The notes under the pieces were generated by a model. That model did no database searches. It saw only the letters and a list, made by a program, of their open reading frames with translations, and had not been told where the DNA came from. A program made the position numbers and the translations under genes. From Chlamydiia bacterium (lineage in GTDB: Bacteria; Chlamydiota; Chlamydiia; Chlamydiales; Rhabdochlamydiaceae), in assembly GCA_963804085.1 (NCBI GenBank), contig CAWDOQ010000002.1:301056-365055 (forward strand): a stretch of 64,000 nt of DNA, given 5' to 3'. This document shows, one piece after another, positions 4,635 to 34,023 of the stretch; position 1 is the first letter of the stretch, and each line of letters begins with the position of its first letter.

Positions 4635-5003
4635 TTATTTTTTCTTGCCAGCAACTGTTTTTCTCTTACCTTTGCGCGTTCTTGAATTCGAACGTGTTCT
4701 CTGCCCTCTCACTGGGAGGCCGAGACGGTGGCGCATACCTCTATAGGCATGGATGCTGATCAATCGTTTGATGTTATTTTGAATTTGACGGCGCAAATCT
4801 CCCTCAACAACATATTGAGACTGGAGGAGGGCATTGAGTTTTGCGATATCATCTTCAGTTAAATCGTGGGCTTTCATATTGGGATTGAGTCCCAATTTAG
4901 CAATGACTTCGTTTGAAACGCGTCTGCCGACTCCATAAATGTAGGTCAGGCTGATCTCTAAGCGCTTTTTCTCGGGGATGTCTATTCCAATCACTCTAGG
5001 CAT
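4635..5003 (-). CDS. rpsM: 30S ribosomal protein S13
   Basis: LTYIYGVG and [18 protein letters not shown] motifs. Confidence 0.97.
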
Positions 5004-7594: not shown

Positions 7595-7608
7595 CTATTC
7601 TCTTCCTC

Positions 7609-7983
7609 TTAAAATTGCATTCCACCTTCACGGGCTGCATTCGCAAGTTCTGCAATAACGCCGTGAAATTTAAATCTGCCGCGATCAAAAACGACCGCTT
7701 TAATGTTCTTCTGCTTCGCAAGCTCGGCAAGTTTCTGCCCTACGCTGCGAGCTGTTTCTTTTGGCTTCACCTTGCTCTTCTTGTTCGTACGGAGCTCTTT
7801 GCTCATTGTACCGAAGCTAGCAAGTGTGATCCCATTCTCATCATCGATGATCTGCGCAAAGAGATTGCGGTTTGTCTTATGAACAGATAAGCGGGGCTTT
7901 AGAGCTGATCCGCGCACCTGTTTTCTCACACGCCACGCTCTCTTTATGCGTTTCTCATTGCGTTTAGTTAAGTAATTATCCAT
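7609..7983 (-). CDS. rplR: 50S ribosomal protein L18
   Basis: PRLSVHKTN and VVFDRGRFKFHG motifs. Confidence 0.97.
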   Translation of the reverse strand: MDNYLTKRNEKRIKRAWRVRKQVRGSALKPRLSVHKTNRNLFAQIIDDENGITLASFGTMSKELRTNKKSKVKPKETARSVGQKLAELAKQKNIKAVVFDRGRFKFHGVIAELANAAREGGMQF

Positions 7984-8967: not shown

Positions 8968-9519
8968 TTATTTCTCCGTTTCTGGCTTTTTGAAGGGAAG
9001 GCCGAGCATTTTCAAAAGCTCCACGCATTCCTCATCGGTAGTTGCTGTTGTGACGAAGGTGATATTCATCCCCTGCGTGCGTTTAATCTCATCAAGATTG
9101 AGTTCAGGAAAGATGATCTGCTCTTCTATTCCCAAAGAGTAGTTACCGCGTCCATCCGACTTTAAAGGAAAACCTCGAAAGTCGCGGATGCGTGGAGAGA
9201 CGATATTGCAAAAACGGTCGAAAAAGTCGTACATGCGCTTGTTACGCAGTGTGACTTTAAGACCGATCGTCTGTCCCTCTCTCAATTTGAAATTGGCAAT
9301 CGCTTTCTTTGCTCGTGTTGCAATCGGCTTTTGGCCTGAGAGTAGTGTCATCTCTTTAATGCAATCTTGGATCGCATTCTTATCTTTGGTCGCTTCTCCT
9401 AGCCCCATGCTAATCACAATCTTTTTAAGCTGAGGAACCAGCATTATATTGGGGTAAGCGAATCGCTCTTGGAGCGCGCCTTTTACTTCCTCTTTGTACT
9501 TCTTGTATATTCTAGACAT
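8968..9519 (-). CDS. rplE: 50S ribosomal protein L5
   Basis: [13 protein letters not shown] and PRIRDFRG motifs. Confidence 0.97.
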
Positions 9520-30676: not shown

Positions 30677-30709
30677 ACTTATGAAGACGATTTCTTATTA
30701 AAAAAATCG

Positions 30710-30728
30710 AGGCGGGCTTCGCCCGCCT
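30710..30728 (-). promoter_or_regulatory. GC-rich hairpin with GAA loop (candidate DGR target hairpin and/or terminator)
   Basis: Minus strand AGGCGGGC-GAA-GCCCGCCT, 47 nt after the stop of the F-box gene, followed by CGA and T7. Confidence 0.6.
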
Positions 30729-30775
30729 TTCCAAAGACCAAAAGATCAATGCCCTTTTGCAAAAAGACCAAGTGT

Positions 30776-31760
30776 TCAAGGACCAAGTACCAGAACTTCC
30801 GCAGGCACCAAACCCGCCACACCAATGTCGTCGACGGCGGAGTTGACGATGTAGTAGTCGACGCGGAGAACGCCCGGGGCGGAGCCCCCAACAACCACAT
30901 ACCAAGCACCATATCTGATCCTCTCCACCATCGCTTGTACGTGTGTAGGTCAACTGCGGCGTTTGAGGAAAGAGGCAAATCTTGTAGCGGGCATAATGAG
31001 CCACTGTGCTGACGGTATAGTAAAGTGCTCTTCCTAGCTGGTTAGGATAATCTTGTTCTGCTTGGGCTTGTGTCTTGCCTCTACTTCCAAGCTTTACTTC
31101 TTTTTCCATCCATACCCAGAGGGCTTTTTCTGTAGCCTCGTTTCCATATTTTTCTGCAATGCCCTCCCAAATACTCCAATTTCATGCCGGCTTTCTCTGC
31201 AAGGGGAGCGAACGTGTTAAAACTGAGCGGCTGGCCATTGACGGTTTTAGGGATGAGGGTGAGGATGTGCGTTTCTTGGAGTTTGTGAGCTGTTTGTAGA
31301 CTTGAGGAGGAAGATGCGGAGCGATCCCCGGGTCTGCTTTCAGGTGCTCTTTCCACTCTTTTTTCCCAAAGGCCATAGCGTGAATCTCTTTGAACCGCTC
31401 TTTAAATTTTCCGCTTGCGGGGGCTGTCATGTTGTAGTTTGCGCCTTGCGCTTGCCAGAGGCGCTCATCTTTCCACGATTTGCAGACGGCTTCGCATTGG
31501 ATGATCTCTATGGGCTCGAGGAATTGTGTCATCTGGCGAAAGGCATCGAAGCTCTGCTTGGCAAGATTGCGGTTGGATGGAGAGCTTGATTCTATTGTGT
31601 TTCTTTCCCCAAAAAAGAGCTGGCTGGCTAAGTCACAGATCCATCTACACACGGCGTTCCAGATCGCTTGGATGCGCTCGAAAAGCTCATCAATGCAGGG
31701 CTTGTCTTGTGCGAGCGGTAAAGTATTAATTGTAGGATTTAAACCTATTGCTGGTGCCAT
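30776..31760 (-). CDS. F-box protein with putative C-type-lectin-like C-terminus; candidate DGR target; three frameshifts (~31290, ~31172, ~30930)
   Basis: Reconstructed across frames: F-box (FRQMTQFLEPIEIIQCEAVCKSWK), AFGKKEW, THILTLIPKTVNGQPL, WVWMEKEVKLGSRGKT, TYTRTSD, VVVGGSAPGVLRVDYYIVNSAVDDIGVAGLVPAEVLVLGP-stop. Confidence 0.72.
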
Positions 31761-31857: not shown

Positions 31858-31986
31858 GTGGACTAAGTGGACTTGGTGGACGGTGTGGACTTTAGTGGAC
31901 AGCGCCAAGAAGAAGAGCCGGAAGAGATCCCCGTCCACTTCGTCCACTGAAAGCCCACTCTTCTCTTCCGTCCACTTCGTCCACTA
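31858..31986. repeat. GTGGAC/GTCCAC ~9-nt-period palindromic repeat
   Basis: Five GTGGAC units (31858-31900), then four GTCCAC units (31933-31986). Confidence 0.8.
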
Positions 31987-32002: not shown

Positions 32003-34023
32003 TCATAAATGAATACGGCGTAAGCGGAGTGCATTCCAGATCACAGAAACGGAACTGAATGCCATTGCAGCACTCGCTACGATCGGGCTTGCTGTAAGCC
32101 CGAAGAAGGGATAGAGAATACCAGCAGCAAGCGGAATGCTGAGGGCATTATACAGAAAGGCAAACCAGAGATTCTGGCGGATGTTCTGCATCGTGGCACG
32201 GCTTAAAATGCGGGCGCGTACAATTCCTCGCAAATCACCTTTTAGCAGTGTTATATCAGCGCTTTCAATCGCCACATCTGTGCCGGTTGACATCGCAATG
32301 CCCACATCCGCCTGCATGATAGCCGGAGCATCGTTAATCCCATCGCCTGCCATAGCGACCTTCTTGTTTTTTTGCTGATATTTTTTTACGATCTGGTTTT
32401 TCTCTTCAGGCAGAATCTCTGCCTCTACGGCATCGATCCCCAGCTCTTTTGCAATGCGCATGGCCACAGATCTGCGGTCTCCCGTCACCATGACGACCTC
32501 TACCCCATCTTCGTGGAGCATTTTGATCGCCTCAAAAGAGGAGCTCTTGATCGTGTCGGCTACCGTGAAAAATCCTGCAAGTTTGCTGCCAATGGCCATA
32601 TATAAAATCGTCTCCCCCTCAAATTCTGCTCGCTCCTGAGGTAGAGAGATTTTCAAATCTTGCATCATCTTGACGTTCCCAAGTGCGATCTCTTTAGAAC
32701 CTACTTTACCTCTCACCCCTTTGCCAGAGAGTGAATGGAATCCCTCCACATGCTCCTCCGGTGCACCCCTTTCGCTTGCAGCTGCCACGATCGCCGCCGA
32801 GAGTGGATGCTCGCTTCCCGCTTCAAGACTCGCTGCCCACCCTAAAAGCTCCGCTTCTTTCCATTCACCTAGCGATACAATCCTCTTCAATCGCACTTTC
32901 CCTTCGGTCAATGTCCCAGTTTTGTCGGTAAGAAGCGTCTGCACCTCTGCCATCTTCTCTAGTGCCTCGGCATTTTTAATTAGCACGCCGGCTTTTGCTC
33001 CTCGACCCACTCCCACCATGATCGACATAGGTGTCGCAAGACCCAGCGCACAGGGACACGCGATGATCAGAACCGAGACTGCATGGACAAGCGCAAGTGT
33101 CGCTTGAGAAAAGAGAAAGAACCAGACTAAAAAAGTGATCAGTGCAACTAGAACAACTGCGGGAACAAAGTAGGAGGAGACAGTATCCGCCAGATTTTGA
33201 ATAGGAGCACGGCTCATCTGTGCAGCTCGCACCAAAAACACGATGCGCGCAAGAAGCGTCTGGTCTCCCACTTTTTCTGCCTGCATGGTGAAGCTTCCAT
33301 TCTGATTTAACGTCGCGCCAACCACCCTATCTCCCTTTTTTTTCTCCACAGGCAGCGCTTCTCCTGTCACCATCGATTCGTCGACAAGACCGGTTCCCTC
33401 GATCACCACTCCATCGACAGGGATCCTCTCTCCCGGGCGCACACGCAGTAGATCTCCTACCTGTACTTCAGCTAAAAGTACTTTTTTCTCTTCTCTATTC
33501 ACATCGATGCGAGAAGCAGTCTCGGGCGAGAGGTTGAGTAGCGCTCTAATTGCTGCGCCCGTTTTTGCACGCGCATTTAGCTCGAGCAGCTGCCCTAAGA
33601 GAACAAGTGTCGTGATAACAGCGCTCGACTCAAAATAAAAACCGATCTCGGGGTAAAAAAGGGCGGCCAAGCTGTAGCAGTAGGCAGCACCTATTCCTAA
33701 GGCGATTAATGTGAACATATTCAGCTTACGGCGCACTAAAGAGAACCAGCCGCGCTCAAAAAAAGGAGCACCACCCCAGAGACAACAGGCGTTGCGATCA
33801 CTGCTTGAAGCCAGCCGCTTTCTTTTGCGAGCAGCATCGTTAAAATAAGCAAGAGGGTGAGAGCAAAAGAGACCCAAAACCTTAGGCGCATCGCTTTGAG
33901 TTCGGGATTTTCCTCTTCTTTTGCCGAAGGATGTTTTGGCTCAAGCGCCATGCCGCAGATCGGGCAAGAGCCGGGCTGCTTCTCCTCTACTTCGGGATGC
34001 ATCGGACAGGTGTAAAGGGTCAT
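32003..34023 (-). CDS. copA: Copper-translocating P1B-type ATPase, one frameshift near 33783
   Basis: [37 protein letters not shown] and YN...MxxSS motifs; frame restored by one extra C (GTC CTC TGG). Confidence 0.92.

Follow-up and report, generated by a model that had tools for sequence, protein, structure and literature searches.

The DNA considered here is a window of 64,000 nucleotides from a Chlamydiia bacterium of the Rhabdochlamydiaceae (positions 301056-365055 of contig C2 in the assembly G000, which has 2.13 Mb in 24 contigs and is 91% complete). It carries on its minus strand a gene that is split between open reading frames (ORFs), has an F-box near its N-terminus and ends in a run of codons with C in the third position, and the question that this locus raises is whether such a gene can be the target of a diversity-generating retroelement (DGR). 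The F-box is the module by which eukaryotes select what their SCF ubiquitin ligases act on, and the targets known for DGRs are mainly receptor-binding proteins of phages and surface proteins or lipoproteins of bacteria. The original prediction, made from the letters of the window, was that the gene is a remote DGR target, by means of which the symbiont could diversify the host proteins that it sends for ubiquitination. A template repeat (TR) for the C-ending codons is present on another contig of the same assembly and complete DGR cassettes lie beside F-box genes in related genera, and we consider it likely, with a probability of about 75%, that the window locus is a pseudogenised, drifted former or remote target within a DGR-written family of F-box proteins with a C-type-lectin (CLec) fold. 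The prediction stands for the gene family; it is not supported for this copy as a working target, which has three frameshifts and a variable repeat (VR) that exceeds the TR by 6 nt and differs from it at 9/75 non-adenine positions, in an assembly where only a remnant of the reverse transcriptase (RT) was found.

A Split Gene With a Run of C-Ending Codons

When read through in a three-frame translation, the gene extends from an ATG at 31760 to a TGA at 30778-30776 and comprises ~327 codons, in line with the single protein of ~325 amino acids (aa) that had been proposed from the split ORFs. The frame order is 1, 3, 1 and 2, which gives four pieces in three frames, and the listed ORFs are parts of this one coding sequence. 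Alignment with five paralogs places three single-base insertions or deletions (indels) at ~31292/93, 31174 and 30912-14, with 0/3 inside a long homopolymer. As the long housekeeping genes of the same assembly (EF-G, Tsp, MnmE, the SecA N-terminus and Psd) are each a single unbroken frame (5/5), pervasive indel error in the assembly is unlikely and the breaks are taken as real. The features of the locus, all on the minus strand, are as follows:

30776..31760: probable pseudogene, a paralog of the F-box and C-type-lectin-fold family, from its reading frames, the indels relative to five paralogs and a match of the family profile, interrupted by a stop, at C2:331943-332815
31611..31697: predicted N-terminal hydrophobic helix, ~aa 22-50, possibly a membrane anchor, tentatively placed by alignment with helix H22-48 of the model of the paralog P0001
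31443..31571: F-box, ~aa 64-106, from Pfam, the family profile and the P0001 model
31292..31293: first frameshift site, where the window gene and the paralogs differ in length by one base, from their alignment
31174..31174: second frameshift site, from the paralog alignment; two Logan contigs of the metagenome run X1 (paralogs or a related strain) are one base shorter here
30912..30914: third frameshift site, immediately upstream of the variable repeat, from the paralog alignment; three X1 contigs are one base shorter at 30914
30776..31272: CLec/FGE-type domain, from THILTLIP... to the stop and across two frameshifts, corresponding to residues 145-310 of the P0001 model
30791..30896: stretch homologous to the TR (the VR in the broad sense), C2:331846-331951, 75% identical to G000:C14:2552-2651
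30824..30868: hypervariable core of 14 C-ending codons and ATT, from the codon reading and the paralog alignment
30729..30790: non-coding 3' element, possibly a target-recognition region or site for the initiation of mutagenic homing (IMH), which starts GAAGTTCTGG and has three TTGGTCYTT-like motifs, from a cross-genus alignment
30701..30728: GC-rich hairpin (8 bp, GAA loop) with a T-run, terminator-like and possibly also a DGR inverted repeat, from its pairing and tail

The protein ends TYTRTSD...YGAWYVVVGGSAPGVLRVDYYIVNSAVDDIGVAGLVPAEVLVLGP*, and 14 consecutive codons ending in C occupy 30868-30827; tail and run are both as they had been read originally. In the long ORFs of the assembly, the background frequency of C at the third position is 0.294, and among the 13 codons that precede the GVA motif of the window gene 12/13 end in C and 13/13 in C or T (binomial p=4e-6). 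Chance or codon bias as the source of the NNC run is rejected on the strength of this excess over the background.

The Template Repeat and Its Adenine-Specific Mismatches

A genome-wide search for a template that differs at adenines, as had been suggested together with the prediction, led to a TR at C14:2552-2651. It is a stand-alone repeat of ~100 nt between hemB and the start of a paralog, and it reads CTC AAC GTC AAC AGC AAC AAC TAT GCC AAC GAC AAC AAC GGC. Over 94 aligned nt, which comprise 19 TR adenines and 75 other bases, the mismatches to four VRs are distributed as follows:

VR C17:150225 (150225-150324): 8/19 TR adenines and 2/75 other bases mismatched, p=2e-5
VR C14:4878 (4878-4977): 12/19 TR adenines and 3/75 other bases mismatched, p=4e-8
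VR C16 (10973-11072): 12/19 TR adenines and 7/75 other bases mismatched
Window VR: 10/19 TR adenines and 9/75 other bases mismatched, with 6 extra nt (two codons), p=3.6e-4

Judged by the sequences, this pattern is the signature of a DGR TR and its VRs, and an adenine-specific template in the same genome is thus available for the window VR as well. For non-adjacent targets, the accessible text of Wu et al. (2018; PMC5758913) asks for A-to-N differences only, with minor exceptions allowed, and for equal length. By this measure C17:150225 qualifies and C14:4878 nearly does, whereas the window VR falls outside with its 6-nt excess and nine non-adenine mismatches. A scan of G000 for in-frame stretches rich in AAC or AAT returned 28 places with at least 6/14 such codons, of which only C14:2574 belongs to this family, and the same scan found no 14-codon TR in G000 that fits the window VR. 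The VRs end in ...GCGGAAGTTCTGG (also given as GCGGAAGTTC) and the TR in a specific 3' end, ...GCGGAAATCCTGT; this distinction between an IMH and an IMH*-like end is kept in G000 and in four related genomes (G004, G010, G009 and G024), and the VR 3' end presumably acts as the IMH.

Complete Cassettes in Related Genera

TR-like DNA was found in 7/61 genomes (60 related genomes and G000), and in the genomes G004, G010, G009 and G024, which represent four other genera, the orthologous TR lies beside a bAvd gene and a DGR RT. The TR of G000 aligns with these four through a shared upstream block, the common 3' end and a downstream 10-bp hairpin, in which 49/50 cells are paired and 5/10 pairs have compensatory changes; values as high were reached by 1/500 shuffles, and slid controls were 38-54% paired. 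Full RTs occur in G004, G010, G068, G141 and G069. The cassette of G004 consists of two tandem F-box/CLec genes, a convergent RT of 362 aa (PF00078, 1.7e-20; motifs GNVTSQ and YCDD), an Avd gene (PF22296, 1.8e-19; NF033474, the NCBIfam DGR Avd model, 87.9 bits with a cut-off of 80) and a TR that reads CTC AAC GTC AAC AAC AAC TAC GAC AAC GAC AAC ATT, which has eight mismatches to the adjacent VR2 within the repeat, seven of them at A. The search in close relatives for a DGR RT, on which the original prediction depended, has thus recovered full RTs with bAvd and TR beside F-box targets.

The order of TR, avd on the opposite strand and RT is the same in G004, G010 and the loci L044 and L045, and the nearest RTs outside the chlamydial family, at 43-49% identity, are those of Patescibacteria, which belong to the candidate phyla radiation (CPR), and of a nanoarchaeon. 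In the three genomes checked (G010, L045 and G004) F-box targets adjoin the RT, with uneven Pfam support: the RT-adjacent target of G010 matches PF12937 with 30.4 bits (cut-off 24.3), a second paralog of L045, ~2.5 kb beyond the RT-adjacent copy, matches PF00646 with 24.3 bits (cut-off 20.5), and the F-box match of the RT-adjacent targets of G004 is sub-threshold.

TR and VR lengths can be compared within these cassettes. In the apparently intact cassette of G010 (L040, on contig C75; TR at ~7600-7673, VR at ~9200-9300), the VR is one codon longer and the remaining differences are all at adenines; the extra codon may reflect slippage of the RT on AAC tracts or a later change of the TR. In G004 the VR of the upstream target T1 (L039:7165-7390) exceeds the TR by two codons and the 3' hairpin of T1 is degenerate, and the RT-proximal T2 has a VR of exact length and an intact hairpin, which parallels the contrast of active and decayed copies in G000.

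The Paralog Family in the Genome

The window gene has ~20 paralogs in G000 (24 tblastn clusters, 5 of them short fragments; 19 family-profile matches), among them numerous uninterrupted ORFs with lengths of 305-340 aa. Most of those closest to the window copy are broken; C17:36618 is intact, and the others are damaged in different ways:

C14: insertion of an insertion sequence (IS) and frameshifts
C16:10961: altered 5' end
C17:149316: one frameshift
C17:35686: many stops
C22:94919: stops

Where the VR flanks match the TR, 6/7 copies are broken, C17:36618 being the only intact one. In the DNA alignment of the tails, the flanks of the close paralogs are ~90% identical and scrambling is seen in the 12-14 codons that separate ...GGCGTTCTC from GGCGTGGC..., which are nearly all NNC, so that the paralogs vary preferentially at these very codons, as had been anticipated. 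The proportion of C-ending codons is 11-12/13 in the five close paralogs (13/13 with C or T), 8-9/13 in the next tier and 3-5/13, that is background, in distant paralogs, many of which retain C or T at the end of 10-11 codons. Across the paralogs, divergence from the TR at non-adenine positions climbs from 2/75 to 9/75 and beyond. The series looks as though targets written by the DGR had been duplicated repeatedly and had then become detached and drifted, with the window copy in its detached, decaying part.

The CLec module itself is found in 51/121 genomes of the family, often as the terminal part of much longer proteins. In a related metagenome-assembled genome, at L059:5707-7269 (minus strand), a CLec-type tail is fused to a NADAR domain (PF08719, 3.3e-12) with no F-box, and the gene adjoins a truncated RT at L059:4968-5567. 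The putatively variable CLec module is thus, as predicted from domain matches, combined with different heads (F-box, NADAR).

F-Box and Predicted Fold

The F-box that had been proposed is borne out for the family by profile, Pfam and model, while the window piece itself stays below the Pfam cut-off: F-box-like matches aa 79-98 of the first piece with E=0.0071 and 16.5 bits (cut-off 24.3), which is weak, and the other three pieces (B-D) have no Pfam match except a chance one to Scm3 (E=0.21). Within the family, PF12937 is matched at E<=0.01 by 16/28 members, with 2.4e-7 as the best value, and PF00646 by 4/28. When the family profile was compared with the sequences of the PDB, 17/18 matches at E<=1 were F-box proteins, led by FBXW8 (2.6e-5) and FBXW7 (3.2e-5).

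The fold was modelled for the intact paralog P0001, which is ~70% identical to the window gene. Its AlphaFold2 model has a pLDDT (predicted local distance difference test) of 87.9, with 93-98 in residues 145-310. No entry of the PDB reached E<=1e-3 in a Foldseek search with this model, the top rows being EgtB, FGE, snake C-type lectins and Mtd. In an exhaustive search with VIA-align, residues 145-310 matched the C-terminal domain of Bd2740 (Z 7.7), EgtB (7.5) and pFGE (6.9), the DGR proteins TvpA (Z 6.9; root-mean-square deviation 3.6, 125 residues aligned), Mtd (6.2) and TaqVP (5.4), and numerous animal C-type lectins. Residues 50-115 matched F-boxes in structures with Skp1, namely Fbw7 (Z 6.5), FBXO31 (6.3), FBXO3 (6.2) and Cdc4 (6.0), as well as FBXW8 (Z 5.0, 34% identity); all these values are below 8, a range in which, according to the tool, common arrangements can score. 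By Z, support for the predicted folds is moderate, yet the match lists are homogeneous, and the lectin fold that the first reading had drawn from pattern agrees with the model. No Pfam or NCBIfam model, FGE-sulfatase included, matches the C-terminal domain. In the model, the VR is positioned at the last strands and a loop of the lectin-type domain.

State of the DGR Machinery in the Genome

As first noted, the window contains no RT, Avd or TR, and the only TR-like stretch is the one on C14. In the G000 assembly, profile searches with PF00078 and PF22296 gave 0 matches each. The RT of G004 found by tblastn only a 41-codon 3' remnant (C14:5199-5077, 78% identical, aa 318-358), which lies downstream of, and convergent with, the IS-interrupted F-box paralog on C14; the 61 nt that precede it, up to the end of C14, are unrelated and contain a stop, and the contig end is unique and not an IS edge. 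A tblastn search of G000 with the Avd of G004 found nothing below E=3.9, and among metagenome contigs scanned with the G004 RT there were 80 loci, none with more than ~81% DNA identity to C14. The TR hairpin is followed by avd and then RT in the relatives, and in G000 by the beginning of an F-box paralog into which an IS has inserted. Since the TR is followed by a paralog rather than avd, and only a remnant of the RT and no Avd were found, the cassette of G000 is rearranged and possibly dead.

The IS has a transposase ORF of 379 aa and occurs in two copies (C14:2843-4025 and C19:209440-210622) that are 100% identical; with one of them inside the F-box paralog next to the TR, this identity points to recent transposition. 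Remnants of the RT 3' end are also found in G064, G079, G117, G121, G107 and G115, with two in G069. They span ~aa 290-347, and the pair in G069 (C1:486478-486651 and 210471-210653) lies a few hundred bases from CLec-module matches. Duplications of targets seem to carry the end of the neighbouring RT along. Six genes of the TIGR02436 four-helix-bundle family (23S rRNA intervening-sequence-protein type; C7:6858-7172, C10:17658-17969, C19:343702-343983, C10:160360-160665, C7:2075-2287 and C19:346295-346501) were considered as Avd and rejected, as none matches PF22296; they have no DGR linkage, and one TIGR02436 gene of G000 sits in an open frame of 1121 aa.

The 3' Element and Its Hairpin

Downstream of the gene, the hairpin that had been described at 30710-30728 is present as such, with 8 pairs (7 G-C) and a 3-nt GAA loop at 30728..30710, followed by the tail CGATTTTTTT. 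It stands at the end of ~95 non-coding nt after the VR that align among G000, G004, G010 and L045, where the proteins are only ~25-30% identical. The stems differ and stay complementary (GGCGGGC/GCCCGCC, GGCCGGC/GCCGGCC and CCCGGC/GCCGGG), as is seen in T2 of G004 and in L045. As given in the accessible part of Guo et al. (2011), the inverted repeat of phage DGRs has a stem of 7-10 bp and a 4-nt GRNA loop and lies 4-34 bp from the VR, and in BPP-1 the structure of the stem matters and its sequence does not. The stem of the window hairpin fits this pattern, whereas its 3-nt loop and its distance of ~62 nt from the end of TR homology lie outside it.

A GC-rich stem-loop followed by a T-run at the 3' end of a gene is also what a Rho-independent terminator looks like, and the 8-bp stem, the 3-nt loop and the T-run between convergent genes resemble one, as does the hairpin of L045, which lies between an A-run and a T-run in the manner of a bidirectional terminator. 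Unlike a terminator, the hairpin closes a non-coding element of ~95 nt whose conservation across genera far exceeds that of the coding sequence, which suggests a role beyond termination, and it may serve both as terminator and as DGR target-recognition region. For the original suggestion that the hairpin is a DGR recognition element, the stem and the pairing kept across genera speak in favour and the loop and distance do not fit, and the caveat that it could be a terminator was well placed.

Proposed Mechanism and Alternative Explanations

A TR was found in the genome and an RT in its relatives, a lectin fold is predicted and the paralogs vary at specific codons; these were the points on which the original prediction was to stand or fall, and the idea of an F-box family diversified by a DGR is therefore well supported at the family level. 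In the mechanism that we propose, the family would have the architecture of an N-terminal hydrophobic helix, an F-box and a CLec/FGE-type domain, the last 12-14 codons of which, before the conserved GVA motif, would be the DGR VR. Adenine-mutagenic reverse transcription of an AAC-rich TR would have written this VR and left the NNC run. The element would be a CPR-type DGR of the order TR-(avd)-RT, apparently intact in related chlamydia-like genera, where the F-box/CLec genes are convergent with the RT. In G000, the cassette would have been rearranged and, it appears, degraded, with the TR and its 3' hairpin kept, the RT cut to the 41-codon remnant and Avd not found, and the window copy would have drifted since, as its three frameshifts, its VR of two additional codons and its paralog-level non-adenine divergence suggest.

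Three other explanations have to be weighed against that of a decayed target. The C-ending run could owe nothing to a retroelement and stem from diversifying selection, gene conversion between paralogs and codon bias, the C14 segment being the tail of another paralog. The paralogs do exchange or retain flanks of ~90% identity, and VR lengths of 12-14 codons are not simply explained by one TR. However, the C14 segment is ~100 nt long with boundaries and has the IMH*-like end and the hairpin of RT- and Avd-linked TRs in four genera, its mismatches are adenine-specific with p down to 4e-8, and an NNC/NNY bias of 12/13 against 0.294 is what AAC templates are expected to leave; we regard this explanation as highly improbable. 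It is somewhat less improbable, and still doubtful, that the gene is intact and expressed, with frame changes that are errors of assembly or consensus and a functional protein whose tip, once written by a DGR, is now fixed. A repetitive family with ~90% identical flanks is prone to consensus errors, and the X1 contigs are one base shorter at 31174 and 30914, although they possibly come from paralogs or a related strain. Against this stand three independent indels within 1 kb, none in a long homopolymer, the unbroken housekeeping genes (5/5) and the different ways in which other close paralogs are broken (IS insertion, stop codons, 5' truncation), and the near-identical contigs of a second run, X2, with a depth of 2-3, do not decisively span the sites.

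The strongest competitor, though itself unlikely, is an active remote target, the VR of which would still be rewritten by an RT and an Avd in unassembled DNA; the frameshifts would then be tolerated by the gene, of recent origin or artefacts. In its favour, G000 has kept the TR with its structured 3' hairpin intact, and the differences of two VRs from the TR are confined almost wholly to adenines, which speaks for recent homing. The conserved 3' element and the hairpin are still in place in the window copy, and the completeness of the assembly is no more than 91%. A survey (PMC5758913) documents cases in which TR and RT are on different strands, targets that are remote and VR indels that lie opposite AAC. 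Activity is opposed by a VR 6 nt longer than the TR with 9/75 non-adenine differences, which amount to ordinary paralog divergence, by three frameshifts where 5/5 housekeeping genes are clean, by an RT of which the assembly holds only 41 codons with no Avd found, and by the breakage of 6/7 TR-like copies.

A decayed former target is nonetheless the reading that we prefer, and the following points weigh against it. DGR loci and repeated families often break assemblies, and the DNA missing from an assembly of 91% completeness in 24 contigs could hold a full RT and Avd. The 3' element and hairpin of the window copy are intact, so it might still be addressable given the machinery. The fold was modelled for P0001 and not for the window gene, with lectin-type and F-box Z values in the range below 8. 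The 6-nt excess alone is compatible with past homing, as DGRs with VR indels opposite AAC and with a TR and VR of unequal length are on record (Wu et al., 2018, PMC5758913, in the legend of Figure 4) and the VR of G010 exceeds its TR by one codon. Soil-metagenome contigs from Logan (four runs compared, with shares of 0.23, 0.16, 0.05 and ~0) speak neither for activity nor for inactivity at the window VR: run X2 holds a near-identical strain at a depth of 2-3, with a contig that ends at 30795, short of the VR, and indel sites that are not decisively spanned, and run X1 holds paralogs or a ~95% relative, with contigs that break at the VR and loose ends that read as other NNC-rich VRs.

Neighbouring Features

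Just upstream of the gene, at 31858-31984 of the window, five GTGGAC hexamers at a spacing of 9-10 nt are followed by four GTCCAC. Clusters of at least 6 such hexamers within 150 nt occur 27 times in G000 (for example at C2:46507-46677), one of them just upstream of the paralog C2:46397, and the GTGGAC-type hexamer is not over-represented in G000 (803 observed, ~1040 expected). The array may represent a series of binding sites or a palindromic element that is dispersed among intergenic regions. Further upstream, at 32003-33877 (minus strand), lies an ORF for a copper-type P-type ATPase of 624 aa with a TTG start and without the usual N-terminal metal-binding region; the 5' end of this ORF may carry a truncation or a frameshift.

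Implications and Comparison With Known Systems

With three TLC nucleotide transporters and the type III export gate SctV, this soil organism is, by its predicted gene content, a chlamydia-like intracellular bacterium. We infer that the proteins of the family are secreted, that they bind the Skp1 of the host and that the variable tip selects host substrates. If they enter the cytosol of the host, targeted hypermutation would here act on effector specificity, a new way for a symbiont or parasite to keep pace with host proteins. More tentatively, the CPR-type DGR might serve as a generator of host-directed specificity that rewrites a CLec tip fused to F-box or NADAR heads, so that the intracellular cells of one clone would together hold many substrate adaptors, a library that sends different host proteins for ubiquitination, in which paralogs like that of the window would be frozen past specificities, perhaps re-addressable through the 3' element. 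Such proteins would be a natural scaffold that joins a degradation handle to a diversifiable binder. The findings would further extend CPR-type DGRs of the order TR-(avd)-RT to chlamydiae, with F-box/CLec proteins as targets, and would outline a life history of the system that leads from an active cassette through paralog expansion with fading NNC scars to loss of the RT and pseudogenes.

A search of a limited collection of papers found none that links DGRs with F-box proteins or describes a chlamydial DGR, and the supplementary tables of the large DGR surveys may list such elements. In a term search of the text of Domman et al. (2014) on chlamydial F-box expansions, the terms retroelement, reverse transcriptase, lectin and hypervariable were absent.

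The closest likeness on the side of the retroelement is to DGR proteins of the CLec type, such as Mtd of BPP-1, TvpA of Treponema denticola and TaqVP of Thermus, with which the family shares a VR at the C-terminal end of a CLec/FGE-type fold, AAC codons in the TR that become NNC in the VR, adenine-specific differences between the two, a VR 3' end that differs from that of the TR (IMH versus IMH*) and possibly a GC-rich inverted repeat downstream. LdtA of Legionella is a further DGR variable protein with a C-type-lectin fold. As in the DGR of Treponema, there are several non-adjacent targets. Unlike in these proteins, the N-terminal partner here is an F-box and not a phage tail fibre or a lipoprotein or surface signal. 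The accessible text of Wu et al. (2018; PMC5758913) gives the architecture B3, TR-(avd)-RT, as typical of CPR DGRs. The cassettes of G004, G010, L044 and L045 share this order, and the nearest outside RTs are CPR and nanoarchaeal, in keeping with a DGR of the CPR/DPANN type; in contrast to that type, the host is a chlamydia-like obligate intracellular bacterium, the targets are F-box or NADAR fusions and the parts of the cassette are rearranged in G000, where a target directly follows the TR and only a remnant of the RT was found.

On the side of the effector, the family resembles the F-box effector families of amoeba-associated bacteria, which are presumed substrate adaptors for the SCF ligase of the host. 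AnkB of Legionella is an F-box effector of this kind, with ankyrin repeats. The F-box proteins with leucine-rich repeats (LRR) of Neochlamydia, as represented by NEX1 (Domman et al., 2014), likewise combine an F-box with a many-copy paralog family in an obligate intracellular bacterium. Unlike in the F-box-LRR proteins of Neochlamydia and in the ankyrin-repeat F-box effectors, the part that would bind the substrate is here a CLec domain with a tip that appears to have been written by a DGR.

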